Source of the DNA: Spirochaetia bacterium
Lineage (GTDB): Bacteria > Spirochaetota > Spirochaetia > UBA9216
NCBI GenBank assembly: GCA_963675665.1
Contig: OY776510.1
Location: 2,912,001-2,976,000 of the forward strand
DNA length: 64,000 nt
Reading direction: 5' to 3'
How positions within the stretch are numbered: position 1 is the stretch's first letter; every line of letters begins with the position of its first letter. The notes below the pieces were generated by a model. It had not been told where the DNA came from and made no database searches. It saw nothing but the letters and a program-made list of their open reading frames with translations. This document shows, piece after piece, positions 14,236-61,883 of the stretch. The position numbers and the translations under genes are program-made.

Positions 14236-14306
14236 GCGGCTGTCGTATAATGGTAATACCCGAGCTTCCCAAGCTCGTGCCGAGGGTTCGATTCCCTTCA
14301 GCCGCT
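14236..14306 (+). tRNA. tRNA-Gly (CCC)
   Basis: Acceptor stem GCGGCTG/CAGCCGC, anticodon arm CGAGC-TTCCCAA-GCTCG, T arm GAGGG-TTCGATT-CCCTT; CCA not encoded. Confidence 0.96.
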
Positions 14307-16833: not shown

Positions 16834-16862
16834 TTGACATTTAAGTAAAGTGCCAATAGGAT
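16834..16862 (+). promoter_or_regulatory. Sigma70-type promoter upstream of the riboswitch
   Basis: TTGACA (16834-39), 17 nt spacer, TAGGAT (16857-62); predicted transcription start just before the aptamer. Confidence 0.7.
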
Positions 16863-16869
16863 AAATTAC

Positions 16870-16972
16870 ATTACTCCGAACCTTTAATTCCTAAAGCTTT
16901 TTATAGCCATGGATAAAGGTCGCTGGGTACGATGGGAAACGATCGTGCCTTCCGTGTTTGAAAAGGAGGATC
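16870..16972 (+). ncRNA. Moco RNA motif (molybdenum/tungsten cofactor riboswitch candidate), P3-less variant
   Basis: P1 CTCC/GGAG; P2 ACCTTTA/TAAAGGT with a CCTAAAG...CATGG tetraloop-receptor-like element; P4 GGTACGAT-GGGAAACG-ATCGTGCC with a GAAA loop; P5 and 3' end CCTTCCGTGTTTGAAAAGGAG resembles the E. coli moaA leader; lies upstream of a WtpA/ModA-like gene. Confidence 0.85.
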
Positions 16973-17116
16973 TGAAAACATTTCTCATGTTAAATAAAAC
17001 AATCTTGTTTTAAATCTCGTTATAAATTTATCCTGCAAGCGAAATGTCATTGATCCGGGATGTCTGAAAAAAACGGAAGGCTGTTAAATCTTTTCCAGTA
17101 ACAAAATGCTCCTCAC

Positions 17117-17176: not shown

Positions 17177-18487
17177 ATGTCATTGTATCGAAAGTATTTG
17201 CCCGAACTGAAGAGTACCACTCTGTTTCAGTCTATTGAAGATGAAGAACTGATTGCGTTACTGGAGGTAATGCATCCTGAAATTGTGTGCCGTAAGGCAG
17301 GAGAACGTGGAATGCCGCCTATTGATATGGAGAACGGTCTGTTCTGTTTTGTCCTTAAAGGAAAACCCCTGGATGAACTGGAACCAAGGCTGGATGCATA
17401 TAACATGCCAGGACCTGCCGAACCCGGAATGATGATGGGCGAGATTCCCTGCCTGTCGGAAATGCGCAAAAGCAGGGCTCCGAGAATAAAAATGAAAGGC
17501 CCTCCTCACGGCGGTCCTAAAAATGAAGAGTTTGATTTATATATGCTCCGGATGAGCGGCGAGATGTTAACCGGATTCTACGGCAGCCGATACAGCAAGG
17601 CACAGGGGATTATGCTCCGTAACTTTTTAGGCATTCTCGCCCAGAAGGTTACCGATGTCCGAAAGGAAAAGGCGGAAACTGTCGCTGCTTTTGAAGCGGA
17701 GCTTGCTCCATATCGTCTGATTGTTTCCTGTGCCGGCGTATCAATGCGGCTTGTCAAAGCCGCAGCCGGAGAGTGGAACAGGATTCACCCGGAGCTGCCG
17801 GCCGTAGTTAATCCCGGCGGTTCAGTCGATCTGATTCGTAATTTTATTAATGGTGAACCCTGTGATCTTTTAATTTCAGCTGATGATGAAATCATGCGTT
17901 CGATGCTGCTACCCGAATACATTGACGGATACCGAATATGGGCTGGTAATAAAATGGTTGTAACCGGCGAAGATATCAATACGGGGAACTGGGAGGAGAA
18001 ACTTCTTGCTGAAGATGCAACCTTCAAACACAGGAACCCGTATGGTGATCCGGGAGGTTACCGCGCTGTTATGGCAATGTTGCTGGCTGACGCATATAAG
18101 CCGGGTCTTTCTGCTCGTCTTATGAATCATCCGGGCCATATCGGTATGGAAAAAGATCCGGGGCCGTTCGGCAATATGAAACCGGCAAAATATGAATTTA
18201 CCTACTTTTCAGGAGCAAAGGCCTCCGGCTGTAATTTTGCTGAATTGCCGCCGGTAATGGATCTTTCTGATCCCGAACTGGCCGGTGAATATGCCAAAGT
18301 CAGTTTTGCCGTAGACGATAAAAACAGTGTAACAGCGACGCCTGTTTCTCATGCACTGACAATTCCAGGGACTGCGCTTCACAAGGAGGCAGCAAAAGAA
18401 TTTGCCGGACTGTTCCTGGCTGTTGACAAGGAACCCGAGGGTTTCCTGCGTCGCGACGGCATTGTCGGCGAAGACCCTCTTAAATAA
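17177..18487 (+). CDS. Fusion of an N-terminal Crp/Fnr-like cNMP-binding domain and a C-terminal WtpA/ModA-like tungstate/molybdate-binding domain
   Basis: N-term LKSTTLFQSIEDEEL...VLKG...GEI...RNFLGILAQK is Crp-like without an HTH. C-term GGSVDLIR, CDLLISAD, NKMVV, DPGGYR and ALTIP is WtpA-like. No signal peptide. Confidence 0.7.
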   Translation: MSLYRKYLPELKSTTLFQSIEDEELIALLEVMHPEIVCRKAGERGMPPIDMENGLFCFVLKGKPLDELEPRLDAYNMPGPAEPGMMMGEIPCLSEMRKSRAPRIKMKGPPHGGPKNEEFDLYMLRMSGEMLTGFYGSRYSKAQGIMLRNFLGILAQKVTDVRKEKAETVAAFEAELAPYRLIVSCAGVSMRLVKAAAGEWNRIHPELPAVVNPGGSVDLIRNFINGEPCDLLISADDEIMRSMLLPEYIDGYRIWAGNKMVVTGEDINTGNWEEKLLAEDATFKHRNPYGDPGGYRAVMAMLLADAYKPGLSARLMNHPGHIGMEKDPGPFGNMKPAKYEFTYFSGAKASGCNFAELPPVMDLSDPELAGEYAKVSFAVDDKNSVTATPVSHALTIPGTALHKEAAKEFAGLFLAVDKEPEGFLRRDGIVGEDPLK

Positions 18488-18507
18488 ATTATATAAGGAG
18501 TAAAAAA

Positions 18508-19647
18508 ATGAAAAAACTAATTACAATCTTACTGTTGACGCTTTGCCTTGCGGTACCGCTGATTGCGGCCGGTCAGACTGAAAGTCCAGCAACGGAAGCA
18601 GTCGGGGAGACCTTTGTCGAACAGGCGGAAAGAAGTGTTACTGTTACTGATATGAGCGGCGACACCGTTACGGTTGTCGGAGAAATTAAGAAAATAGTCA
18701 ACCTGTGGCCGGCAGGAACTTCTTCTTTTTTTGTCATGGGCGCGGGCGATTTAATAGTCGGTCTTGCCGTAAACAAACCCGGTACAATGAATTCCTGGAC
18801 GCAGCTGTTTTATCCCGATTGCGTCAATATTCCCGCTCTCGGCGGTGTTACCCCCTCTGTTGAAGATATCATCAAGCTGAACCCGGACCTGGTTATAATT
18901 CATCCGACTACCGCAAAAGCCGGTTTTGCAGAACAGATTCGCGGTGTTGGAATTCCGGCTATCAATATCAATTTCAGCGACTATAAAACAATGATGCAGG
19001 CTTACACTGTTCTCGGAGAAGTTCTCGGAGGAGAATATCAGGAAAGATTAAGTACCTGGTGTAATGCTGTAGAAAACAAACTGGCAAATGTAAGAAGGCT
19101 GACAGCAGGTATTGATCAAGCGGACAGGCCGGTTGTTTATTATATTTCCGGCCAGACTGATTCGCTGACCGCGACCATGTCTGCCGACAGTATTATTAGC
19201 GATTGGGTTGAGTCTACCGGCGGAGTTTACGCAGCCGGGCTTATGTCGATACCTGCAAAGGAAATGACGGCAGAAGCGGTTTTCAGTCTTAATCCTGATG
19301 TGATCGTTTGCGGAGGGGTATATCAGCATATTGAGAAGAATGCCCTTGAAACTTCGGAAGGCTGGAAAGAATTGAATGCAGTAGTAAACAATAGGGTCCA
19401 CAACAATCCCTACGGCTGTTTTAACTGGGACCGTTTCGGCCTTGAAAGTCAGTTGCAGATTAATTATGCACTTATGAGTATTCAACCAGAGATAGCAAAA
19501 GCAAACGGAATCACAAAAGAATCGATGATCGAAGAAATTATTGAATTCTACAGGACTTACACTGATTATGAATTAACCCTGATCCAGGCTGAGAATATGC
19601 TTGGCGGCCTGCGCTTCGACGGCACAGCTGAAATTCCTGTTCAGTAA
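18508..19647 (+). CDS. ABC transporter substrate-binding protein, class III (BtuF/FepB/MolA-like)
   Basis: Signal peptide, VTVTDMSG, EDIIKLNPDLV, NPYGCFNWDR motifs. Confidence 0.88.
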   Translation: MKKLITILLLTLCLAVPLIAAGQTESPATEAVGETFVEQAERSVTVTDMSGDTVTVVGEIKKIVNLWPAGTSSFFVMGAGDLIVGLAVNKPGTMNSWTQLFYPDCVNIPALGGVTPSVEDIIKLNPDLVIIHPTTAKAGFAEQIRGVGIPAININFSDYKTMMQAYTVLGEVLGGEYQERLSTWCNAVENKLANVRRLTAGIDQADRPVVYYISGQTDSLTATMSADSIISDWVESTGGVYAAGLMSIPAKEMTAEAVFSLNPDVIVCGGVYQHIEKNALETSEGWKELNAVVNNRVHNNPYGCFNWDRFGLESQLQINYALMSIQPEIAKANGITKESMIEEIIEFYRTYTDYELTLIQAENMLGGLRFDGTAEIPVQ

Positions 19648-19656
19648 TCATTTTTT

Positions 19657-20745
19657 ATGATGCAGACCGATCGCAGAAGCAACAGCCTTTCCGCAGATGG
19701 CGGAAAGGTCGTCTTTCATAAGAAGCAATTAGCCAGTACTTTTACATTTACAGGCATTCTTATCCTGTCTGTAATTCTGTTATTCGTTGTTTTTACGGCA
19801 TCTCTGGCAATCGGCAGGTTCGGAGTTCCTTTCGGCTGTACATTAAGAATCCTGTTTTCAAAGATATTTACTGTCGAACGGGTTTGGAACAATATAGAAG
19901 AGGCAGTGGTAATGGACCTCCGGTTGCCGCGAACAACAGCCGCAATCATAATAGGAGCATCGCTGGCTCTCTCCGGGGCAACATATCAGAGTATTTTCAA
20001 AAATCCCATGGTATCGCCCGACCTGCTTGGTGTATCTTCAGGCGCCTGTGTGGGCGCGGCTCTGGCAATCCTGATGAGTGCCGGAAGCGCTGTAATTCAA
20101 GTCGGAGCTTTTGCGGGCGGTTTGCTTGCAGTAGCTGTAACGGTTACAATCCCGACATTGATTCGCAACAGTTCCACCACTGTTCTGGTCCTCTCCGGAA
20201 TCGTTATCAGCAGTCTGATGTCCTCAATCATGAGTATAATCAAGTTTGTGGCAGATACGGATACGCAATTGGCGGAAATTACCTACTGGCTGATGGGTTC
20301 GTTTGCATCAATTACTTTTACCCAGATGCTGCCTGTTCTGCCTGCCATTCTTGTTCCGGCAGTTATCATACTGCTAATGCGTTACAGGCTGAATGTGCTT
20401 TCGCTCGGCGATAAAGAAGCAAGATCGCTTGGAGTAAATCTTAGGACAACGCGGGGAATGTTCATTCTTTGTTCAACACTGATAACCGCCGGCTGCGTAT
20501 GCCTGTCCGGAACAATCGGATGGGTGGGCCTTATTATTCCACATACGGCGCGAATGATAATAGGTTCTGACAATAAAAAGATGCTCCCTGTTGCGATGAT
20601 TTTCGGAGGAATCTTCATGCTGATTATAGATATTCTTTGCAGAACGATAACCTCAGCTGAATTAAGGCTGGGTATTCTGACTGGAGTAATCGGCGCTCCG
20701 TTTTTTATTTTTATCCTTTTTAAGCAAAAGAAGCAAATAAAATGA
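19657..20745 (+). CDS. FecCD/BtuC-family ABC permease
   Basis: RLPR, FKNPMVSPDLLGVSSGA and GWVGLIIPH motifs. Confidence 0.93.
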   Translation: MMQTDRRSNSLSADGGKVVFHKKQLASTFTFTGILILSVILLFVVFTASLAIGRFGVPFGCTLRILFSKIFTVERVWNNIEEAVVMDLRLPRTTAAIIIGASLALSGATYQSIFKNPMVSPDLLGVSSGACVGAALAILMSAGSAVIQVGAFAGGLLAVAVTVTIPTLIRNSSTTVLVLSGIVISSLMSSIMSIIKFVADTDTQLAEITYWLMGSFASITFTQMLPVLPAILVPAVIILLMRYRLNVLSLGDKEARSLGVNLRTTRGMFILCSTLITAGCVCLSGTIGWVGLIIPHTARMIIGSDNKKMLPVAMIFGGIFMLIIDILCRTITSAELRLGILTGVIGAPFFIFILFKQKKQIK

Positions 20746-21512
20746 TATTAGAAGTAAATAAACTGAGTTTTCATTATCATAACAGCCGTATGATTTTTCA
20801 AGACGTAGGATTCAGCGTAAACAAGGGAGAAGTACTGACGATTCTCGGAACAAACGGAGCCGGCAAATCAACACTTCTCAACTGCATTGCCAATCTCAGC
20901 AAACCGCAAACCGGAGAGATCCTGCTTGACGGGCAGCCGATGTCAAAGATGCATATTCGTGATGTTGCGCAGATTATCGGATACGTGCCGCAGATCCACA
21001 CTCCGGCATACGGCTATTCAGTGCAGGAGTATGTTGTTATGGGCCGTACACCGTATATAGGCGCTTTTTCATCGCCTGGTGCCGGGGATTACAAAATTGC
21101 CGATGAAGCGTTGGAGCGGATGGGAATTGTGCATCTTCGGGATAAACTGTATACGGAAATTTCAGGCGGGGAGCGTCAACAGGTTCTGATTGCCCGGGTA
21201 TTTGCTCAGAAACCGCAATTAATCCTCCTGGACGAACCGACGGCTCACCTGGATTACGGAAACCAGTATCGTGTAGTACAGATGATCCGAATGCTTGCTG
21301 AAGAAGGGTACGCGATGATAATGACTACTCATAACCCTGAGCACGCTTTCATTCTCAACGGAAAGGTCGCAATTCTCAATCGTGAAGGCGTTTTAGGGGT
21401 CGGCCGTGCAGTGGAAACCCTAAACGCGGAAACACTTTCGAATCTTTATGAGCTGTCAATAAAAACGATATACGACGACGATGCGAAACGTAATATCTGT
21501 ATTGTTTTTTAA
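20742..21512 (+). CDS. ABC ATPase (FecE/BtuD-like)
   Basis: GTNGAGKST, ISGGERQ and LLDEPT motifs. Confidence 0.94.
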   Translation: MILEVNKLSFHYHNSRMIFQDVGFSVNKGEVLTILGTNGAGKSTLLNCIANLSKPQTGEILLDGQPMSKMHIRDVAQIIGYVPQIHTPAYGYSVQEYVVMGRTPYIGAFSSPGAGDYKIADEALERMGIVHLRDKLYTEISGGERQQVLIARVFAQKPQLILLDEPTAHLDYGNQYRVVQMIRMLAEEGYAMIMTTHNPEHAFILNGKVAILNREGVLGVGRAVETLNAETLSNLYELSIKTIYDDDAKRNICIVF

Positions 21513-50724: not shown

Positions 50725-51903
50725 ATGGATAGAGTTTACCTTGATAATAATGCAACAACCCTGGTTGATCCCCTTGTAAAAGACGCGATGGACCCTTTTT
50801 TTACAAAAATGTACGGGAACCCCAATTCACTGCACAGTTTCGGCACCGAAATACATCCCTACATGAGTATTGCGCTTGACAGGTTGTACGATGGCATAAA
50901 TGCCGATGATAAGGATGATATATTCATTAACAGCTGCGCTTCCGAGGGAAATAATACAGTAATTAAGTCGCTTTATTTCGACAGTGTTCTTAACAGTAAA
51001 AAAAACCGGATGATCACATCTGCAATTGAGCACCCGGCTGTTTCTAATGTATATTTGTTTCTTGAAAAACTTGGTGTCGATGTGAAATGGCTCCCGGTTA
51101 ACAGCCAGGGAATTGTTGATCCTGCCGAATTGCGAAAAGCTATTGATCCGGATAAAACAGCGCTTGTGTCGCTTATCTGGGCAAATAATGAAACCGGCCT
51201 GATAAACCCGGTTAAAGAGTACGGTGAAATCTGCCGTGAGAACGGAGTAAAACTGCATCTTGACGGAGTTCAGGCTATCGGGAAAATTCCTGTCGATGTT
51301 CAGGATGTTGAAGTCGATTATCTGACCTTCAGCGCCCATAAGTTTCACGGCCCGAAAGGAGTAGGCGGTCTGTATGTCCGAAACGGCGCAGGCATAACTC
51401 CCCTGATCCACGGCGGCGAACAGATGAACGGAAAACGCGCAGGCACCATCAATACCGCTTTCATGATAGGTATGGGACTTGCGCTGGAACTTGCCGTTAA
51501 AAACCTTGATTATGAAGCCACCGAAGTCCGCAGACTGCGCGATAAACTTGAAGACGCCATTCTTGAAATTGATGATGTCGAGGTTATTGGAAGCCGTGAT
51601 ATCCGGACGCCCAATACAATCCTGGCAAGTTTCAGGGGTATTGAGGGTGAAGCTTTCCTCTGGGATCTGAACCAGAAAGGAATAGCAGCATCAACCGGAA
51701 GTGCCTGCTCGTCGGAATCGCTGGAATCAAATCCGACCTTCCAGGCAATGCAGATAGGCGCTGATCTGGCCCATACAGGTATGAGATTCAGCCTGTCGCG
51801 TTATACAACTGAAGAAGAAATTGATTATGCTGTCGATGTTATCAAAGGTGCAGTAGAAAGATTGCGGAGAATCTCATCGACGAGCAACAGGGAATATATC
51901 TGA
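50725..51903 (+). CDS. nifS: Cysteine desulfurase NifS
   Basis: YLDNNATT, SAHKFHGPKG and STGSACSS motifs. Confidence 0.95.
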   Translation: MDRVYLDNNATTLVDPLVKDAMDPFFTKMYGNPNSLHSFGTEIHPYMSIALDRLYDGINADDKDDIFINSCASEGNNTVIKSLYFDSVLNSKKNRMITSAIEHPAVSNVYLFLEKLGVDVKWLPVNSQGIVDPAELRKAIDPDKTALVSLIWANNETGLINPVKEYGEICRENGVKLHLDGVQAIGKIPVDVQDVEVDYLTFSAHKFHGPKGVGGLYVRNGAGITPLIHGGEQMNGKRAGTINTAFMIGMGLALELAVKNLDYEATEVRRLRDKLEDAILEIDDVEVIGSRDIRTPNTILASFRGIEGEAFLWDLNQKGIAASTGSACSSESLESNPTFQAMQIGADLAHTGMRFSLSRYTTEEEIDYAVDVIKGAVERLRRISSTSNREYI

Positions 51904-51988
51904 GTTGGAGTAATTTGGAAAGCGGAATTTTTCAAATTAAATTACAGTAAACCTGCAACCGTGCAGGAAGCTATATATTGGAGAAGTC

Positions 51989-52954
51989 ATGGCTAAAAAT
52001 GATTTAATCGGCGGAGCTTTATGGGAAAATTATTCCGATAAAGTCAGCGACAGAATGAACAACCCGCGGTTTATGGGTGAAATCTCCGAGGAAGAGGCTG
52101 AAGCGAAGGGCGCAAAACTGATAATTGCAGATTTCGGAGCTGATTCATGCGGAGATGCTGTAAGACTTTACTGGATGGTTGACCCTAAAACCGATATTAT
52201 AATTGATTCCAAATACAAGAGCTTCGGATGCGGAACAGCTATCGCATCAAGTGACATAACGGCTGAACTATGCATAGGCAAAACTGTCGATGAAGCGGTT
52301 AAAATTACCAATATAGATGTTGAAAAAGCATTGCGTGATACCCCCGACAAGCCGGCAGTTCCTCCCCAGAAAATGCACTGTTCGGTAATGGCTTACGATG
52401 TAATAAAAAAAGCAGCTTCATTATACAAACAGGTTGATATGTCGGTTTTTGAAGATGAGGAAATTGTTTGCGAATGTGCAAGGGTCTCCCTGAGCACGAT
52501 CAAGGAAGTTATAAAGCTTAATGATTTGAAAACCGTTGAAGAGATTACCCAGTACACCAAGGCGGGAGCTTTCTGCAAATCCTGCATTAAACCCGGCGGG
52601 CATGAAGAGAGAAAATTTTATCTTGAAGATATTCTTCGTGATACGCGTGCCGAAATGGAACGCGAAAGGCTTAATTTCAGCAGCGAAACACAGACCTTCA
52701 GCGAAATGACCCTGATTCAGAAACATAAAAAAGTGGACAAGGCGATAACCGAATCGATTCTGCCGATTCTGAATGCGGACGGCGGAAGCGTTGAAGTCGT
52801 GGATATGCAGGAAGTGGACGATTATACCGACGTATATATCAAATACAAGGGGGCTTGCGCGGGCTGTGCGGCAAGCAGAACCGGTACATATGAGGCAATC
52901 GCCGACACGCTGAGAAAGAAAGTCGACGAATCAATCAGGGTCCACATTCTCTAA
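51989..52954 (+). CDS. nifU: Fe-S scaffold NifU (IscU + BFD-like + Nfu domains)
   Basis: CGD, FGCG and MHC; CEC...CKSC; DGG...GACAGC. Confidence 0.93.
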   Translation: MAKNDLIGGALWENYSDKVSDRMNNPRFMGEISEEEAEAKGAKLIIADFGADSCGDAVRLYWMVDPKTDIIIDSKYKSFGCGTAIASSDITAELCIGKTVDEAVKITNIDVEKALRDTPDKPAVPPQKMHCSVMAYDVIKKAASLYKQVDMSVFEDEEIVCECARVSLSTIKEVIKLNDLKTVEEITQYTKAGAFCKSCIKPGGHEERKFYLEDILRDTRAEMERERLNFSSETQTFSEMTLIQKHKKVDKAITESILPILNADGGSVEVVDMQEVDDYTDVYIKYKGACAGCAASRTGTYEAIADTLRKKVDESIRVHIL

Positions 52955-52965
52955 ACACCCGGAGG

Positions 52966-53901
52966 GTGGAAATGAAAGCTCAGAATGTAACCGAACTGAT
53001 CGGAGGGACTCCTCTGGTCAGGCTTAACCGTATATGCGGTAATGCAGAAGTTTATGCAAAACTTGAATATTTCAATCCCGGAAGTTCGGTAAAAGACAGA
53101 ATAGCACTGGCTTTAATTGAAGACGGAGAAAAAAGCGGATTAATAAACAGTGAAACTATCATTGTCGAACCCACAAGCGGCAACACAGGTATAGGTCTTG
53201 CGATGGTGTGTGCCGTCAAAGGATACAGGCTGATACTGACTATGCCTGAAACCGTCAGCCCTGAGCGAAGGCAGATCCTTGCCGGATTCGGGGCGGAACT
53301 TGTTCTGGTGTCCGGGAAGGGGGGAATGACGCCTGCAATTGAAAGAGCCCGTGAGATTGCAGCTGAAAATCCGGACAGTTATATGCCGGGACAGTTCTCA
53401 AACCCCGCAAATCCCGCTGCGCATGAGTTTACAACGGCCCGTGAAATATGGGATGATACCGGCGGAAAGATAGATATACTGGTTTGCGGTGTCGGCACCG
53501 GAGGAACAGTCAGCGGTACTGCAAGAGGGCTGCGCCGGCTGAACCCTGATCTGAAGGTTATTGCAGTGGAACCCGCGGATTCACCCGTGATTACCCAGCA
53601 CTTGAACGGACAGAAGCCGGCACCAGGCAGCCATGTCATTCAGGGAATAGGCGCAGGTTTTATTCCTGAAAATCTTGATATTTCACTAATCAGTGAGGTA
53701 ATATTGGTCACAAATGCCGATGCCCTGGAATATGCCAGGCGTCTGATGAAGGAAGAAGGCATTTTCGCCGGAATATCAGCGGGGGCGGCGGCCCGGGCTG
53801 CAGTTGAGATTGCCTCGAAGCCCGAAAATAAAGGTAAAACGGTTGTTTTTGTTGTTCCTGATACCGGTGAAAGATATCTGTCGCAGAATATATTCAGCTG
53901 A
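52966..53901 (+). CDS. cysK: Cysteine synthase A
   Basis: SVKDR, PTSGNTG, GVGTGGT and ERYLS motifs; start may be ATG 52972. Confidence 0.95.
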   Translation: MEMKAQNVTELIGGTPLVRLNRICGNAEVYAKLEYFNPGSSVKDRIALALIEDGEKSGLINSETIIVEPTSGNTGIGLAMVCAVKGYRLILTMPETVSPERRQILAGFGAELVLVSGKGGMTPAIERAREIAAENPDSYMPGQFSNPANPAAHEFTTAREIWDDTGGKIDILVCGVGTGGTVSGTARGLRRLNPDLKVIAVEPADSPVITQHLNGQKPAPGSHVIQGIGAGFIPENLDISLISEVILVTNADALEYARRLMKEEGIFAGISAGAAARAAVEIASKPENKGKTVVFVVPDTGERYLSQNIFS

Positions 53902-53919
53902 TTAATTTGGAGAGTAAGA

Positions 53920-54813
53920 ATGTCAGGTTTCAAAGAAGAATTCAATATCAAGGAAATAACGGAAGAACTGTGCAAATCTGAATCTTACAGCAAGGTTTAC
54001 CTCAGATCCAGCGAGCACGATATTCATATGCCGTCAATTGATGAACTTGCAAAAGCGGTTGAACTGCTGCGGTCGGTCATATTTCCCGGTTACTTCATCC
54101 ATTCGGAACTGCGCGAAGATACAATGCATTATTACATAGGGAGCAGTCTTGATAAATGTTTTGCAATACTTTCAGAGCAGTTGAAACGGGGATACTGTTT
54201 TGCGTGCTCTTCAGAGACGGTATGCAATTTCTGTGAAACCAGGGCTGAAGAAGCCGCAGCGCATCTGCTGAAACGACTTCCGTATATCAGACACATGCTG
54301 TCGACAGATGCCGAAGCCGCTTATGAGGGTGATCCTGCGGCAAAAAGTATAGGAGAGGCTATTTTCTGTTATCCAAGCATACGGGCCCTGACGAACCACC
54401 GAATTGCGCACGAACTTTATCGCTTCGGTGTTCCAATAATACCAAGGCTAATCAGCGAAATGGCTCATTCCGAAGCAGGAATTGATATTCATCCCGGGGC
54501 GGAAATCGACGAGCATTTTTTCATAGATCACGGTACAGGCACCGTAATAGGTGAAACTTCTGTTATCGGAAAAAATGTTCAGATTTACCAGGGCGTAACA
54601 CTCGGTGCGCGAAGTTTTCCCAAGGATGAAGACGGCAAACCAATCAAGGATATCCCGCGACACCCAATAGTAAAAGACGGCGTTATCATATATGCCGGAG
54701 CTACTGTGCTCGGTCGCGTAACTATCGGTGAAAATGCTATGATTGGCGGTAATGTCTGGATAACGCGCGATGTCCCTGCCGGCGAGAGGGTTATTCAGCG
54801 GCGGGCGGACTAA
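53920..54813 (+). CDS. cysE: Serine O-acetyltransferase (EpsC-type)
   Basis: GDPAA, IDIHPGA, IDHGTG, YQGVTLG and RHP motifs. Confidence 0.92.
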   Translation: MSGFKEEFNIKEITEELCKSESYSKVYLRSSEHDIHMPSIDELAKAVELLRSVIFPGYFIHSELREDTMHYYIGSSLDKCFAILSEQLKRGYCFACSSETVCNFCETRAEEAAAHLLKRLPYIRHMLSTDAEAAYEGDPAAKSIGEAIFCYPSIRALTNHRIAHELYRFGVPIIPRLISEMAHSEAGIDIHPGAEIDEHFFIDHGTGTVIGETSVIGKNVQIYQGVTLGARSFPKDEDGKPIKDIPRHPIVKDGVIIYAGATVLGRVTIGENAMIGGNVWITRDVPAGERVIQRRAD

Positions 54814-55972
54814 CACCGACATCAGCTGCGGCTGAATATAATGCATCAAAAAAGAACTGAAACTCATGTTCGGTGATTATCAGCGGGGGATCGATCCGCA
54901 GAAATGAGCCCCTGTACCCGGTAAGAAATCCCTGATCAACAAGCTGTAAATATATCTTTTTTGTCAGCCCGGGATTGATAAACTCAATTGCATACATCAA
55001 CCCCCTGCCGCGGACCTGAGCAACAGCGTCAAGTTCCTCAAGACCTTCAAGTTTTTCCAGGAACAGCCTGCCGTTGATCTCTGCTTTTTCAATCAGGCAG
55101 TTTTCATTTATCACCCTGATTACCTCGCGCGCAACGGCGGCGCCCAGCGGATCATTCTGATGTGACTGGGCATATTTAAACGGACGACCCTCAAGTTCCA
55201 TGGTTATTCCGGCATTTAAGGCTGCAACACTGACGGGATAACCGTTGCCGATACCTTTCCCGATGGCAATCATGTCAGGTTCTATATCATAATGATTGTA
55301 TCCGAACCATTTGCCGGTTCTGCCTATTCCGGTAGTAACCTCGTTGACGATGATTTTTCCGCCGTTTTTTCTGACTTTGTCCGAAATGGTTTTAATTAAT
55401 GCTTTCGGGGGAAACCTGACAAAACCCGATGAACTTCCGGGTTCAAAAATAAAGTCTGAAATTCCGTCAGGGATATCACTGATTAAAGGACAATCTGCGC
55501 TGCATACATCAGCATTAACGCAATTTACACAGCCGGCCCAGTCAAAACAGTACCAGCCGGACTCTCTTCTTCCGACCGAAGAAAAGGCTCCGAGGTATGA
55601 ATCTTTCATTGTCATTGAAAGCGGTTTTCCGGTAAGATGGCGGGCAATCTGTCTTGATATCTCTATTGCTTCGCTTCCTGAGCACAGGAACACGGCTTTA
55701 CCGTCCGGCATCCCCGTCTTCTCCAGTACCGTTTCAGCGGCTTCCTCGACAATCCGGGTTGAATAACAAAAGCCGGCCTGTACAAGTGAACCGAGCTGGT
55801 TAATTATGGTTTGATTAATCTCTTTCCGCTGATGTCCGAGAGACATGCACCAGACTCCGGATTCAAGATCCATATAGTAATTGCCGGCCCGGTTTTTAAT
55901 GTATAGTCCGTTTCCTTCTGTTATGTCGGGTAAAAGAAGTTCATGCCCGCTGCAGTTAAAAACGTGTTTCAT
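54791..55972 (-). CDS. Class III aminotransferase-fold PLP enzyme (NEV variant)
   Basis: SGSEA, FEPG, NEVTTGIGRTG and GKGIGNG motifs; ATG overlaps the MocR stop codon (ATGA). Confidence 0.85.
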   Translation of the reverse strand: MKHVFNCSGHELLLPDITEGNGLYIKNRAGNYYMDLESGVWCMSLGHQRKEINQTIINQLGSLVQAGFCYSTRIVEEAAETVLEKTGMPDGKAVFLCSGSEAIEISRQIARHLTGKPLSMTMKDSYLGAFSSVGRRESGWYCFDWAGCVNCVNADVCSADCPLISDIPDGISDFIFEPGSSSGFVRFPPKALIKTISDKVRKNGGKIIVNEVTTGIGRTGKWFGYNHYDIEPDMIAIGKGIGNGYPVSVAALNAGITMELEGRPFKYAQSHQNDPLGAAVAREVIRVINENCLIEKAEINGRLFLEKLEGLEELDAVAQVRGRGLMYAIEFINPGLTKKIYLQLVDQGFLTGYRGSFLRIDPPLIITEHEFQFFFDALYSAAADVGVSPPAAE

Positions 55973-57438
55973 ATGCAATTCTCCCTTATGGTTTCACTGA
56001 TTATTTTTATCCCCTGTTCAATCTCATCCGGAAGGGTTTTTGAGAGCGATATTCTGACGCAGATATTCCGGGACGGATCTTGAAAATATAAACTGCCGGG
56101 ACTTACAGCAACGCCTTTGCTAAGAAGCTCGGACAGAAACTGTTTTTCACTTATCGGCGGATTATCCCAATATACAAGAAAAGTATAGCCGCCCGAAGGT
56201 TTCGTATACCGGACGTAATCGAGTGATAAATACCGGCGGGCGGCTTTCATGGCGGCATTGATTCTTTCGCGGTACCTGGTGTGGACCTTTTTCAGAAAAT
56301 ATTCGAATTTCCCCTGTTTAAGAAAATCTGTCAGAGCCATCTGTATAAGGGGGTTTCCCGATAACCGGGTTACCCTTCTTATTTCCGCCAGCCTGTCTAT
56401 TAATTTCGGAGAGGCGGCAATCCATCCGGTTCTGAGTCCGGGGAACAGTATCTTTGAAAAAGTGCCGACATAGATAACAATGCCGCTGCTGTCCATTGAT
56501 TTTATCGGAAGTATTGTTTCTCCATGATACTTCAATTCTTCAAGAAAACCGTCCTCAAGAATCGGCACATTATACAGGCTGCATAACTCAAGGAGTTTTT
56601 CCCTGTTTTTCTGGCTGATCGACAGGCCCGAAGGGTTCTGAAAACTGGGCATTGTATAAAGAAGGGAACAGTTATTATTTTCGAGTATTTCCTCAAGTGC
56701 ATGAATGTTCATGCCGCTGTCCGTTAACGGGATCGGCGCTGTGGTGCCGCCGTTGCAGGCAACAAGGGACGGAAGATAACTGTAGGTGGGTTCCGAACAA
56801 ACGACAGTATCTCCCGGATGCAGCAGCGCCTTTAATACCAGGTCAATAGCATCCTGACTTCCGTTTGTAACAAGAATATTCTTTTCAGATATATAGATCT
56901 GGTGGCGGCCAAGATACTTGGAAAGCTCTTTTCTGAATTCCATGTTCCCCTTCGGATCTTCGTACGACATAGCCGTTTCCGGATCGCTTTGAAGTATTCT
57001 GTTAATGCTTTTTCTGAATTCTTCAACAGGCCAGTATGCGGGATCTGAAGACAGCGTCGTAAAATCGATCTTGCAGTTTTGCGGATACTGGATGCCGCCT
57101 GATGCCATTTTTTCGGACATTCTTTTATATGAAGGCGACAGTTTTTCATCCCAGTTGATCCCGGTTTCGTTTATATTTTTCGAACTGGTAATATCGGGAC
57201 GGTTTCTGATTCTTGAATAGCTTCCCGGTCTGCTCTCAATATAACCGAGGCTCCATAATTCTTCATATGCCTTGCATACAGTAGTTCTGTTTACTTCAAG
57301 GTGAACCGACAAAGCCCTGGTCGAAGGCAGGATATCACCGTCTTTAAGGGCCTGATTTTTAATCATTGATTCAATCTGTTTTGCGATCTGTTTATGTAAA
57401 GTGTCTTCGGATTTTCGATCTATAGTTACCAGAATCAT
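55969..57438 (-). CDS. MocR/GabR-family regulator (GntR HTH + PLP aminotransferase domain)
   Basis: LPSTRAL..HLEVNRTTV..AYEEL HTH; FQNPSG and TFSK...GLRTGW motifs. Confidence 0.93.
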   Translation of the reverse strand: MILVTIDRKSEDTLHKQIAKQIESMIKNQALKDGDILPSTRALSVHLEVNRTTVCKAYEELWSLGYIESRPGSYSRIRNRPDITSSKNINETGINWDEKLSPSYKRMSEKMASGGIQYPQNCKIDFTTLSSDPAYWPVEEFRKSINRILQSDPETAMSYEDPKGNMEFRKELSKYLGRHQIYISEKNILVTNGSQDAIDLVLKALLHPGDTVVCSEPTYSYLPSLVACNGGTTAPIPLTDSGMNIHALEEILENNNCSLLYTMPSFQNPSGLSISQKNREKLLELCSLYNVPILEDGFLEELKYHGETILPIKSMDSSGIVIYVGTFSKILFPGLRTGWIAASPKLIDRLAEIRRVTRLSGNPLIQMALTDFLKQGKFEYFLKKVHTRYRERINAAMKAARRYLSLDYVRYTKPSGGYTFLVYWDNPPISEKQFLSELLSKGVAVSPGSLYFQDPSRNICVRISLSKTLPDEIEQGIKIISETIRENCI

Positions 57439-57530
57439 TCTTCTCTCCTGATACTCAAAATAGCAGCAGAGCGGATGATTGGCAACAGCCAAATATTGTC
57501 TGAATTGAACAGACCAATTACCATAACCGC

Positions 57531-57560
57531 AAAAAAATAGGCTGCATTTTGAATGCAGCC
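57531..57560 (-). terminator. Intrinsic terminator after the cysS-like/VOC pair
   Basis: Perfect 9-bp stem GGCTGCATT/AATGCAGCC followed on the minus strand by TATTTTTTT. Confidence 0.75.
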
Positions 57561-57602
57561 CCTAAAATATATCTTCCGGCTGTATCAGCCGCTATGAAAA
57601 AA

Positions 57603-57968
57603 TCAGTCTACCTCGGATACCGTAAGAATATTTTTGTCGTGATCGTAGAATTTCAGCATGCGCATGCCCTGTTCCGAAAATTCAACAATATCGCCTTTAA
57701 GTGTTACCTCTTCAGCCAGCAGGTGTGCCTTGAATGAATCAAGATCTGCAACACCGAACGTCATAAACTCGTTTACCGGGTAGGGGGCATCCTGTTTCCA
57801 CTGATTTATTGCAATATAAGCATTTGTTACTCCGGGAACAGCCATTTCAACCCATCCGTCGGATTCAAAAGCCCGTTTGAACCCAAGAACCTTTTCGTAG
57901 AAAGTTTCGGTTTTCCTGATATCCCTTGACCATATGAAGGTTATTGAATGTTTATAATTAATACTCAT
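57603..57968 (-). CDS. VOC (glyoxalase/bleomycin resistance) family protein
   Basis: FYEKVLGF, W.E, FGVADLD and FYDHDKN motifs; 121 aa. Confidence 0.85.
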   Translation of the reverse strand: MSINYKHSITFIWSRDIRKTETFYEKVLGFKRAFESDGWVEMAVPGVTNAYIAINQWKQDAPYPVNEFMTFGVADLDSFKAHLLAEEVTLKGDIVEFSEQGMRMLKFYDHDKNILTVSEVD

Positions 57969-59231
57969 TTAGAACTCCTGTAAATTCATGTTTTTATGAG
58001 GGTAAATTACATTGAGAACATTGTCAATTTTTTCAAGATTTTTATTCAGTTTTTTTTGCTGTAAATCTGATAACGGCTGTGTTCCGCTCAGGTCGGAGAG
58101 TTTTTTTATGATTGAATGAACGGCATTAAAACCCTCTCCGAGAGAAAGGTCGTTGTCAAGTTCTTTCTCAAAGGCAGCCGGTATTCTGTCAATCAATAAG
58201 CCGGCCTGTGAATTGTCGTTTGTATTTCCGGAGCATATTGAAGAGATCAGGGATCTGAAATTCCTGATAATATCTGTACTTTGTTTAAAGGCTTTTTCCG
58301 TATAATTAAGCTTTTTACGGTAATGTTTATAGGTAAGAAAAAACCTGATGTCCCGCCAGTCGGCGCCGGATGCCGCGAGGGTTTCGGGATAAATGATATT
58401 CCCGCGGCTTTTGGACATTGTTTTACCGTCCACTATCAGATGGGCTCCGTGCATATAGTAATTGGCGTAATCTTTACCTGTAAAAGCCTCCATTACGGCG
58501 ATGTTGTAATCATGGTGACGGTAGATATTATCTATTCCGCCGCAGTTAATATCAATTTGATCACCGAGGCTCATTGCAACAATTGCCGGATCCTGAATGT
58601 TCCATGAAGGCCTGCCGCGTCCTATTGCAGTGTCCCAGTAAGGATGGTAGGGATCATTTTTATAATTATGCCAGAGTATGAAGTCTCCCATATTCCACCG
58701 GTTGCCGTTGTATGTGTCTTTTCTGAAATGTCTTTTTCTGTCGGGCCAGCGGTTCATATCCAGGCGGAACAGCTTTCCAAAATTATTTATTTTCAGGGGA
58801 TCGAAAAAATAATCCTCTTTATGTTCATAGACGATTTTTTTCTCAATAAGATTCTGAATTATTCGCACCGACTGATCTATGCTTTTGGTAGCCGGTATAA
58901 GATGATCGGGCATAATAAAACCGAACCCGTCCAGGCCTTCCCTGAAAATGGCCAGCACATCATCGGTCAGCGATTTTACATTCGTTTTTTTTCTTTTTGC
59001 TTCGTTTATGGCTTTGTCCTCAATATCGGTTAGGTTCATTGCCCTTTCGACATTGTAACCCTTGTAACGAAGGTATCTGACAAGAAGATCTTCATAGAGA
59101 AAAGTCCGGTAATTACCGATATGAGCTTTCTGATAAATCGATGGTCCGCAAGTGAATATTTTTACATTTTTCCCTTCGCGCGGCTTAAATATTTCGATGC
59201 TGCGTGACATGGTGTTGTATAACTTCAGCAA
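57969..59231 (-). CDS. Atypical cysteinyl-tRNA synthetase paralogue (class I aaRS, C-terminally short)
   Basis: LYNTMSR, TCGPS, HIGN and MSKSRGN motifs; WNIQD replaces the canonical WHIEC; 420 aa. Confidence 0.85.
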   Translation of the reverse strand: MLKLYNTMSRSIEIFKPREGKNVKIFTCGPSIYQKAHIGNYRTFLYEDLLVRYLRYKGYNVERAMNLTDIEDKAINEAKRKKTNVKSLTDDVLAIFREGLDGFGFIMPDHLIPATKSIDQSVRIIQNLIEKKIVYEHKEDYFFDPLKINNFGKLFRLDMNRWPDRKRHFRKDTYNGNRWNMGDFILWHNYKNDPYHPYWDTAIGRGRPSWNIQDPAIVAMSLGDQIDINCGGIDNIYRHHDYNIAVMEAFTGKDYANYYMHGAHLIVDGKTMSKSRGNIIYPETLAASGADWRDIRFFLTYKHYRKKLNYTEKAFKQSTDIIRNFRSLISSICSGNTNDNSQAGLLIDRIPAAFEKELDNDLSLGEGFNAVHSIIKKLSDLSGTQPLSDLQQKKLNKNLEKIDNVLNVIYPHKNMNLQEF

Positions 59232-59313
59232 TCCATACTCCTCTGTTATTATGAATATAAGCAGACTTGGGGAAAAAGTCGACTTAATTAGTTATTTAAT
59301 GTATATTAAAGCC

Positions 59314-59928
59314 ATGAGCAGAATAGACGTTCTGAAAAAACATTACGAACCAAGGCTTGAAAAATACAGGGATAATTCAAGGGTGCTGGACTGGGAAAGC
59401 CGGGATGCACAGTACAAACGTTTCAGAGCTCTTACGGATAACCTTGATCTCCGGGGAAAATCATTTCTGGATATAGGCTGCGGCTGCGGAGATTTCTTCG
59501 GACTGCTTGGTGAACTTGGAATTAAGGCTTTATATACCGGCGTGGATATCCTTGAAAAAATGATTGATCGCGCTGTTAAATGCTATCCCGAAGCTGATTT
59601 TTGCTGCGCTGATATCTTTGACAAGGATTTTTGTGCCGGAAAGCAGTTCGGATGTCCCGTATTCGATATTACCTACACGTCCGGAATATTCAATCTGAAT
59701 GCAGGCAATAATGAAAAATTCCTTAAAAAGGCGGTTCCGGTAATGGCCCGGCTTGCCGACGAAGCGTTTGCATTCAATCTGCTGGATCCTGCGTCGCCTG
59801 ATCGGGATGAAAGATACTTTTATTATGAACCTGAAAAAGCCTGCCGGCTTGCAGAACCGTATTCAAGCGGTATAAAAATTATTAAGGGATATCTGGCAAA
59901 CGATTATACTCTTATATGTATGAAGTGA
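59314..59928 (+). CDS. Class I SAM-dependent methyltransferase
   Basis: Q..RF, LDIGCGCG, YTGVDI and SGIFN motifs; start moved to ATG 59314. Confidence 0.88.
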   Translation: MSRIDVLKKHYEPRLEKYRDNSRVLDWESRDAQYKRFRALTDNLDLRGKSFLDIGCGCGDFFGLLGELGIKALYTGVDILEKMIDRAVKCYPEADFCCADIFDKDFCAGKQFGCPVFDITYTSGIFNLNAGNNEKFLKKAVPVMARLADEAFAFNLLDPASPDRDERYFYYEPEKACRLAEPYSSGIKIIKGYLANDYTLICMK

Positions 59929-61057: not shown

Positions 61058-61374
61058 CTCCTATAAGAAATTCCTGCATGGATGCAGGTATCTGAGGGTG
61101 TAGTTTGAAAAGATATTTTCAAACTACTAAATGATAAAATAACACGGATGTTATTTTATCATTCCTCCTATAAAACTTTCCGCCATGGAGGGCGGTTTCA
61201 TTACAGGAAGTTTGCATCAGCAAACTTCAAAATGATAAAATCACAAGGAAGTGATTTTATCATTCCTCCTGTAAAACTTTCCGCCATGGAGGGCGGTTTC
61301 ATTACAGGAAGTTTGCATCAGCAAACTTCAAAATGATAAAATCACAAGGAAGTGATTTTATCATTCCTCCTGTA
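61058..61374. repeat. Structured 101-bp tandem repeat (about 2.4 near-identical units plus one diverged partial unit)
   Basis: ATGATAAAAT recurs at 61131, 61232 and 61333; each unit contains three hairpins. Confidence 0.9.
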
Positions 61375-61427: not shown

Positions 61428-61883
61428 ATGATTCCTGAAGATGTACGTGAATTTCTGGATAGACATAAACTGGAAGCTGTTGAGTTTGAAGAAGGCAGTA
61501 CGCCGACCGCAGAAACTGCAGCTATGAAACTGGAAGTAAAAACCGGTCAGATTGCAAAATCAATACTGCTCAAGGCAAAAAAAGGCAATTTCTGTCTTGT
61601 TGTCTGCGCAGGCGACAAAAGAATAGATTCAAAAAAGGCGAAGGAGCTGATCGGATCAAAAATCAGGATGGCGAATGCGGAAGAACTCTATGATATTCTG
61701 GGTTTTAAACCCGGAGAAGTTTGTCCGTTCCGCAATTCCGATATTCCGTATTTTATTGATGAAAGTCTCTCTGTTTACGATACTGTCTACCCTGCAGCAG
61801 GAACTGATTCGTCAGGTGTCCCTGTGGCGTATGACAAGCTTATAGAAATTACCGGTGCGGGAGTATGCGATATAACTGGCTGA
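61428..61883 (+). CDS. YbaK/EbsC-family aminoacyl-tRNA deacylase
   Basis: TAETAA, QIAKSIL, G.VCPF and YPAAG motifs. Confidence 0.88.
   Translation: MIPEDVREFLDRHKLEAVEFEEGSTPTAETAAMKLEVKTGQIAKSILLKAKKGNFCLVVCAGDKRIDSKKAKELIGSKIRMANAEELYDILGFKPGEVCPFRNSDIPYFIDESLSVYDTVYPAAGTDSSGVPVAYDKLIEITGAGVCDITG

Follow-up and report, generated by a model that had tools for sequence, protein, structure and literature searches.

The 64,000-nucleotide stretch analyzed here (hereafter the window; Spirochaetia bacterium of the UBA9216 lineage, assembly GCA_963675665.1, contig OY776510.1) encodes a relative of cysteinyl-tRNA synthetase (CysRS), termed CysL, in which the adenylation motifs of this enzyme stand beside a changed amino acid pocket and from which the anticodon-binding domain is missing. 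The question raised by this locus is which reaction such a protein might catalyze. Judged from the comparisons described below, CysL very probably does a ligation job different from that of CysRS. The favored interpretation, to which a probability of roughly 0.4 is assigned, is that of an adenylate-forming ligase with a new specificity for the amino acid, the acceptor or both, and with RNA as the narrowly favored acceptor.

An earlier note on the window had described a CysRS-derived protein retaining HIGN, MSKS and Cys28, and both the open reading frame (ORF) and the alignments bear this out (Table 1). The TTG start of the ORF is judged sound because the protein, beginning with MLKLYNT, can be aligned from its first residue onward to E. 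coli CysRS (MLKIFNT) as well as to all close relatives. Identity to canonical CysRS is about 30%, and the alignment to the E. coli enzyme (1li5) covers E. coli residues 1-372 of 461. In the pairwise alignment, GRPSWNIQDPAI of CysL lies opposite GRPGWHIECSAM of E. coli, and INCGGIDNIYRHHDYNIA opposite IHGGGSDLMFPHHENEIA. In E. coli numbering, Cys28 and His234 (His239 of CysL) are kept, whereas Cys209 is changed to Asp214 and Glu238 to Asn243; these four are presumably the zinc ligands of E. coli CysRS, as Newberry is said to have reported in 2002. Further changes fixed in the CysL family are His206 to Asn, Glu208 to Gln, Pro233 to Arg and Asn237 to Tyr, resulting in a pocket of Cys28, Asp214 and His239 together with Asn211, Gln213, Arg238, Asp241, Tyr242 and Asn243. 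Gly29, Thr68 and Trp210, which presumably hold the backbone and the side chain of the cysteine substrate, are kept in the family.

Conservation was assessed in 199 distinct sequences of about 45-97% identity, comprising the window protein, its 120 best database hits, the translations from 80 loci and six representatives. Here, the replacement of WHIEC by WNIQD and of PHHENE by RHHDYN, likewise pointed out in the earlier note, turned out to be conserved throughout the family and far beyond chance. The first motif is kept at W210 (197), N211 (196), Q213 (197) and D214 (197), the second at R238 (198) and, without exception, at H239, H240, D241 and Y242 (199 each), and N243 is found in 189 sequences, with Thr in six and Ser in four. 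At the positions of the zinc site expected for a cysS product, Cys209 is replaced by Asp in 197 of the 199 sequences and Glu238 by Asn, Thr or Ser in all of them, while Cys28 and the His are retained; the six sequences without Cys28 are fragments with a gap there. Among the 120 best hits (49-97% identical to CysL, 277-447 aa long), W[NH].QD is present in 119 and CGG.DN...HHDY in all. The adenylation motifs HIGH and KMSKS expected for cysS are both represented, and GG.D is kept as well (G231 in 198, G232 and D234 in 199), with only the first position of xMSKS being variable (P in 67, T in 59, S in 30 and K in 29 sequences). When 20 rows of the CysL family were set against 40 of canonical CysRS, 64 positions proved to be conserved identically in both groups and 13 to be conserved in both with differing residues. 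The two pocket motifs account for seven of these 13 (211, 213, 214, 215, 238, 242 and 243), and a further two (26 and 31) flank Cys28; at 211, 213 and 214, the canonical rows have H, E and C in 100%. A catalytic scaffold that is held constant while the substrate pocket is rebuilt in a concerted way is the classic signature of a specificity switch, and the remodeling is under strong purifying selection across the 199 sequences.

Asp at the position of the second zinc Cys also occurs outside the CysL family, in seven of 150 representatives showing W-H-x-[EL]-D-T (P0143, P0151, P0201, P0234, P0253, P0260 and P0263). In four of these, Asn237 corresponds to a Cys (HHECE, HHECV or HHDCE), which gives the impression of a displaced zinc ligand. 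A change of Cys209 to Asp can therefore be accompanied by compensation, which the CysL family, having Tyr242 there, lacks.

That an anticodon domain is missing, as had also been claimed, is corroborated by Pfam, by the end of the TIGR00435 match and by the end of the E. coli alignment. Pfam recognizes the catalytic domain tRNA-synt_1e (PF01406, 235.6 bits) in CysL but neither DALR_2 nor the anticodon-binding domain at the C-terminus of cysS (PF23493, CysS_C) at E <= 0.01, although both are found in the full-length CysRS fusion proteins P0130 and P0181 used as control. Against the cysS model TIGR00435, CysL scores 294.5 bits (cut-off 340), the match stopping at model position 402 of 466, and against TIGR03447, representing the mycothiol ligase MshC, 193.3 bits (cut-off 485.1). 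The best match to a solved structure is CysRS 8qhp (E=1.7e-58). The AlphaFold model (pLDDT 89, pTM 0.89) has a CysRS-like fold with a four-helix bundle at the C-terminal end (residues 312-406), and its TMq is 0.87 to 8qhp, 0.85 to 1u0b and 0.81 to MshC 8hfn (range for MshC 0.79-0.81). Hence, the comparison with E. coli CysRS and MshC suggested in the note yields a CysRS-like fold and scores below the curated cut-offs of both families.

CysL belongs to a distinct and conserved family of CysRS-derived proteins lacking the anticodon domain and found mostly in Spirochaetota. Five further family representatives score 260.7-315.6 bits with TIGR00435, so that all six proteins are below the cut-off of 340. 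In the exhaustive search of representatives, full-length family members reached 347-396 bits and the next full-length proteins at most 275 bits, the latter with canonical motifs. The tree, built from 75 rows, unites the family and one degenerate member (P0131) in a clade with an SH-like approximate likelihood ratio (SH-aLRT) support of 100 and a branch length of 0.52, whereas its grouping with P0132, a short form with canonical pocket, is weak (SH-aLRT 56). Scanning one genome per species (185,579 species) gave 220 stretches matching the family patterns, 150 of which encode a relative, and 80 loci, all from metagenome-assembled genomes (MAGs), were kept for analysis. According to the record titles, 69 of these are from Spirochaetota, nine are deltaproteobacterial (Desulfobacterota-type, that is, Desulfobacteraceae, Syntrophobacterales, Syntrophales and similar), one is from Acidobacteriota and one is labeled Thermoplasmata. 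In the latter (L071, CP070751.1, 5.16 Mb), CysL branches among those of Desulfobacterota and Acidobacteriota; given the genome size, the label 'Thermoplasmata archaeon' looks doubtful. The corresponding cluster in the protein Atlas has 190 members, is named 'class I tRNA ligase family protein' and is most common in Spirochaetota. Since several other CysRS-like clusters of about 400 aa exist in other phyla, short length alone is not unusual, and short forms with canonical pocket pass the cysS cut-off. Fused forms of the CysL family were not found among proteins of 736-2100 aa, which is weak evidence; the three hits in this range all have canonical motifs, two of them with extra Pfam domains (IspD/IspF and a glycosyltransferase, respectively) and the third with the catalytic domain only. 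P0130 and P0181 (768 and 783 aa) are natural fusions of a CysK-like PALP domain with a full-length canonical CysRS. A description of the CysL family was not found in the literature searched, where MshC and the CysRS variant CysRS* turned up.

As to the acceptor, a segment of the connective-peptide domain (residues 155-182, Table 1) is conspicuously basic. Averaged over 20 rows of the family, it carries a net charge of +5.85, compared to means of -1.38 for 40 canonical CysRS and +2.89 for nine short canonical forms, with W162 and P163 being invariant and K166, R168 and F169 nearly so in the family alignment. CysL has an isoelectric point (pI) of 9.15 and is the eighth most basic of 56 window proteins (median 5.4), and the family shows a median of 9.05 (n=189), with 75% of its members above 8. 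The segment points to a polyanionic partner, possibly RNA. According to Mukai et al. (2016; PMC5389517), residues of the CP1 domain recognize the first acceptor base pair, and the segment 155-182 may correspond to them.

In the favored interpretation, CysL would still form an aminoacyl-adenylate from a small amino acid, the selection of which would not proceed via the canonical Cys/Cys/His/Glu zinc route. A candidate substrate would be a cysteine isostere with an oxygen or nitrogen donor, such as serine. This or another isostere is plausible because zinc sites with a carboxylate ligand recognize serine in methanogen-type SerRS, as stated by Rubio Gomez and Ibba (2020), who also give zinc-thiolate binding as the basis of Cys/Ser discrimination by CysRS. 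Alternatively, cysteine might be bound at a Cys/Asp/His metal site, as such a pocket could hold zinc and bind the thiolate. Subsequently, the aminoacyl group would be passed to an acceptor not recognized via the anticodon of tRNA(Cys). If this is RNA, the acceptor end or a nucleoside of a tRNA would be engaged by the basic connective-peptide segment, and CysL would work like CysRS* or GluQRS rather than MshC. For the acceptor taken by itself, RNA is tentatively and narrowly preferred at somewhat less than even odds, a small molecule as in the case of MshC is a possible and only slightly less probable choice, and the rest is left to a protein or carrier acceptor or to no transfer at all.

In the window, CysL forms a two-gene unit with a VOC (glyoxalase/bleomycin-resistance fold) gene. 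As the earlier note had stated, the TAA of CysL (57971-57969) directly abuts the ATG of the VOC gene (57968-57966), which is preceded by AGGAG 6 nt upstream, and a terminator follows. The VOC gene is here translationally coupled to CysL and, by all appearances, co-transcribed with it. As a general claim, however, the coupling is not supported: among the 79 loci in which an ORF was called downstream of CysL, a VOC orthologue immediately follows in only eight (the window, L001-L004, L006, L029 and L035), hence in the lineage of the window and at one other locus. In the CysL tree, these correspond to the clade of the window (7 of 8 rows, L005 being without VOC) and, separately, to L035. At family level, the linkage is thus largely not conserved, an outcome the note itself had named as speaking against its proposal, and VOC, as an operon companion confined to certain lineages, is neither a defining nor a family-wide partner. 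At the strand-1 position of His7, where VOC enzymes usually have their first metal-binding His, three of the eight orthologues have Asn. A comparison of the VOC protein of the window with NCBIfam yielded nothing beyond 18-bit matches to bleomycin-binding models, which lie far under the cut-offs, and no curated Fos or glyoxalase family was matched; among solved structures, the best match has an E-value of 0.022. A role as FosB-type thiol transferase or glyoxalase I is not supported, there being neither a curated match nor a conserved metal-binding His. Two contigs of one UBA9216 MAG (L006 and L067) each carry a CysL copy, followed by VOC in L006 and, without VOC, by a directly convergent nifU-nifS after a partial CysL in L067; either a mixture of two strains in the bin or the presence of two gene copies may account for this. 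Across 57300..59700 of the window, no Rfam match at E <= 1 was obtained, and the eight promoter-like sites found do not exceed the 6.0 ± 2.8 expected from shuffled sequences.

Gene neighborhoods were compared using ORFs called by a simple longest-ORF rule and clustered by BLASTP. This analysis, also suggested in the earlier note, showed VOC to be kept at the eight loci mentioned above but did not reveal a universal partner gene of CysL across the loci analyzed. The divergent methyltransferase of the window, the start of which was placed by alignment of 11 orthologues, is found in the same position at 11 of the 78 loci with a called upstream ORF, representing two CysL clades, and matches only generic class I S-adenosylmethionine (SAM)-dependent methyltransferases. 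In another clade, genes for an ATP-binding cassette (ABC) ATPase and an ABC-2 permease are located directly downstream of CysL (13 of 79 loci), in seven cases within 7 nt or overlapping. Other clades have rpe/glmS, fba, clpS/clpA, lipB, uvrC, eno, plsY or holA as neighbors, and these housekeeping neighborhoods show stable clade-wise synteny. By tblastn, nifU was detected within the 10-kb flanks of 11 and nifS of 12 of the 80 loci, in addition to the window, where nifS, nifU, cysK and cysE form a block convergent with the CysL-VOC unit. Several clades from two phyla (L010, L021, L067, L077 and L079) have nifS/nifU in the vicinity of CysL, albeit in differing arrangements: convergent in spirochaete clades, co-directional as nifU-nifS 48 nt after CysL in L077, and with cysE in L079. 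Likewise, cysE/cysK are found near CysL in several clades. For genes with one or two copies per genome, the proximity of nifS/nifU is more than expected by chance, although the loci are phylogenetically related and provide only three or four independent contexts. Together with that of cysE/cysK, it hints at a link to sulfur trafficking. In L001, L002, L029 and L035, cysE directly follows the VOC gene, and the regulator and aminotransferase genes lying between the two in the window look like an insertion specific to this genome.

Table 1. Positions of CysL, its motifs and other features within the 64,000-nucleotide window.
Feature	Position	Strand	Remarks
CysL, CysRS-like ligase gene	57969..59231	-	420-aa ORF, TTG start, TAA stop
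Cys28 codon (first zinc Cys of CysRS, in FTCGPS)	59148..59150	-	retained, aligns with E. coli C28; Cys in 193/199
HIGN (class I HIGH motif), residues 37-40	59112..59123	-	H37, G39 and N40 each in 193/199
Basic segment of connective-peptide domain, residues 155-182, RLDMNRWPDRKRHFRKDTYNGNRWNMGD	58686..58769	-	conserved in family
WNIQDP, residues 210-215, in place of canonical WHIECS	58587..58604	-	Asp214 at position of second zinc Cys
CGGIDNIYRHHDYN, residues 230-243, in place of GGGSDLMFPHHENE	58503..58544	-	His239 kept, Asn243 at position of Glu ligand
TMSKS (class I KMSKS motif), residues 271-275	58407..58421	-	M272 in 198, S273 in 197 and K274 in 198 of 199
VOC (glyoxalase/bleomycin-resistance fold) gene	57603..57968	-	121 aa; PF00903, 35.1 bits (cut-off 20.6)
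Intrinsic-terminator-like hairpin closing the two-gene unit	57539..57561	-	stem of 10 bp (5 GC pairs) and loop of 3 nt, followed by a T run (ATTTTTTTGC)
Divergent class I SAM-dependent methyltransferase gene	59314..59928	+	204 aa from conserved MSRIDVLKK; Methyltransf_25 and related Pfam matches; context only
nifS-nifU-cysK-cysE block	50725..54813	+	converging on CysL-VOC unit
MocR/PdxR-like regulator and class-III aminotransferase genes	54791..57438	-	regulator NF052282, 331.7 bits (cut-off 320); between VOC gene and cysE
TD-2 RNA motif (RF03162), three tandem copies	61072-61167, 61179-61268, 61280-61369	+	55-57 bits (gathering threshold 48.7)
YbaK/ProX-type aminoacyl-tRNA editing-domain gene	61428..61883	+	directly downstream of TD-2 copies
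Molybdenum/tungsten cofactor riboswitch (RF01055)	16862-16984	+	80.3 bits

Among the other features of the window, the arrangement of the three TD-2 copies suggests a cis-regulatory or small RNA array tied to a trans-editing factor. The RF01055 riboswitch is located upstream of genes for a solute-binding protein and a Fe-siderophore-type ABC transporter (17177..21512).

In weighing the interpretations, the housekeeping neighborhood in most clades and the same basic shift in the short canonical-pocket forms are counted in favor of an RNA acceptor. Several observations speak against it. The shift in the short canonical forms may reflect host genome composition instead of RNA binding. No tRNA gene is adjacent to CysL in the 56 of 80 loci scanned, only four of which hold any tRNA gene, and the sole one in the window, tRNA-Gly at 14236, is not near CysL; a tRNA-Sec-like hit is absent from 10 non-spirochaete loci. 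In addition, the CysL family has HH[DE]Y in common with the tRNA-independent MshC, which has likewise lost the Glu ligand, and of the nine short canonical-pocket forms, seven of the eight in which the motif was found keep the Asn there and five keep Asn-Glu. Finally, some lineage-specific neighbors (methyltransferase, VOC, CN-hydrolase and ABC-2 exporter) fit small-molecule chemistry. In line with the idea of the earlier note, an MshC-like, tRNA-independent ligase that adenylates cysteine or an analogue and joins it to a small-molecule amine, leading to a thiol or metabolite of Spirochaetota, has to be considered, with methyltransferase and VOC modifying or using the product in the lineage of the window. 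Such a role is less likely than not but only narrowly behind that with an RNA acceptor. It would agree with the shared architecture of about 410 aa without anticodon domain, with the pocket features common to both proteins and with a Cys/Asp/His set that could still hold zinc, precedents for zinc sites of this type being available. The proximity of nifS/nifU and cysE/cysK in several clades of two phyla, co-directional in L077, and the methyltransferase-CysL pair at 11 of 78 loci also suit it, as does the statement by Hiras (2018) that no low-molecular-weight thiol has been documented or predicted for Spirochaetes. Nevertheless, MshC keeps the second zinc Cys, His206 and Glu208, all replaced in CysL, the TIGR03447 score stays far below its cut-off, and a pI of 9.15 would be unusual for an enzyme acting on small molecules when the proteome is acidic. 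Moreover, VOC is present at only 8 of 79 loci, in three of the eight with Asn for its first metal-binding His, and neither genes of the MshA/MshB or BshA/BshB type (glycosyltransferase/deacetylase) nor mshD were seen among the annotated neighbors. The latter is a weak argument, as msh genes are scattered in genomes too.

That CysL is a working cysteine-tRNA ligase, sole or second, in which a Cys/Asp/His metal site still selects cysteine without an anticodon domain, is improbable. The housekeeping neighborhoods with their stable synteny would be in line with this, as would the clusters of about 400 aa named CysRS in other phyla, the short canonical-pocket forms passing the cysS cut-off and the lack of a second CysRS gene in the 64-kb window and the flanks of the 80 kept loci. 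However, phyla with CysL members normally carry a canonical cysS, and the family is distributed patchily, the genomes of 185,579 species giving 150 matching stretches that come from several phyla. Seven pocket positions, at least 88% conserved in the 40 canonical rows and five of them to 100%, are replaced by equally conserved residues, none of the six family proteins scored with TIGR00435 reaches the cut-off, and Cys/Ser discrimination is stated to be based on zinc-thiolate binding (Rubio Gomez and Ibba, 2020). Names are divided, JGI calling many members cysteinyl-tRNA synthetase and NCBI calling them class I tRNA ligase family protein; for annotation, it matters that the JGI label is probably wrong for the CysL family. 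Even less probable, and very improbable in itself, is a non-catalytic paralogue acting as a HisZ-like sensor or regulator, with binding of an amino acid or nucleotide but no ligation. Aminoacyl-tRNA synthetase (aaRS) paralogues with regulatory roles exist, and neither a partner nor a product was identified from the analysis. A loss of chemistry is disfavored, though, because conservation of catalytic motifs, as seen at H37, G39 and N40 (193 of 199), K274 and G231 (198) and G232 and D234 (199), is not expected without it.

The interpretation of CysL as an adenylate-forming ligase of new specificity remains preferred over these alternatives. Identifying its amino acid and acceptor would add either a metabolite pathway or an RNA aminoacylation or modification activity. 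Going further, the family might constitute a new class of aaRS paralogues, in which a rebuilt Cys/Asp/His pocket serves to activate either a substrate other than the canonical one or, in a novel manner, cysteine, for thiol or metabolite synthesis or for anticodon-independent aminoacylation or modification of tRNA; on present evidence, this is a rather doubtful proposition.

With canonical CysRS (TIGR00435, PF01406 + PF09190 + PF23493; 1LI5/1U0B), CysL shares the Rossmann core, the connective-peptide domain, the stem-contact fold and the helical bundle as well as HIGN, MSKS, Cys28, His234, Trp205 and Thr68. It differs in the missing C-terminal anticodon-binding domain, the changed pocket, the basic segment, the high pI and the score below the cut-off. 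MshC (TIGR03447; 3C8Z, 8HFM), which ligates cysteine to GlcN-Ins in mycothiol synthesis, resembles CysL in its length of about 410 aa, the lack of an anticodon domain, the class I motifs, the lost Glu ligand and the Tyr after HH[DE] (FPHHEYS in MshC, HHDYN in CysL). In contrast, MshC keeps the second zinc Cys in GWHVEC, where CysL has SWNIQD, so that the Cys/Cys/His set, presumably the MshC zinc site binding the cysteine thiolate, is not found in CysL; only the change of Cys to Asp, along with His206 to Asn and Glu208 to Gln, separates the two pockets. Furthermore, MshC is actinobacterial, whereas the CysL family is mostly from Spirochaetota.

Closer in its surmised mode of action is CysRS* of Desulfobacterales, which Mukai et al. 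(2016; PMC5389517) describe as a second CysRS copy without anticodon domain and with an altered CP1 motif, and some CysL members are indeed from Desulfobacteraceae MAGs. CysRS* is, however, encoded downstream of selC*-selB* according to the same text, an arrangement not found for CysL. It is judged absent because the tRNA-Sec hit is lacking at the 10 loci and no SelB-like flanking ORF occurs at two loci, namely L073 and L078, two of four Desulfobacteraceae loci, in which the five flanking ORFs contain no GTPase/SelB Pfam domain. The CP1 motif differs as well, being RWP followed by basic residues in CysL and PTVS in CysRS*. GluQRS (YadB), a truncated GluRS glutamylating queuosine in tRNA(Asp) (cited in PMC9437257), is likewise a standalone class I paralogue without anticodon-binding domain; as it stems from another aaRS lineage, it serves as a functional analogy only, and only for the RNA-directed interpretation. 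All three, MshC, GluQRS and CysRS*, are presented in a review as truncated aaRS paralogues with unexpected chemistry. If a place beside them proves true for CysL, it would be either the maker of the missing low-molecular-weight thiol or cysteine metabolite of Spirochaetota or a CysRS-derived counterpart of GluQRS.

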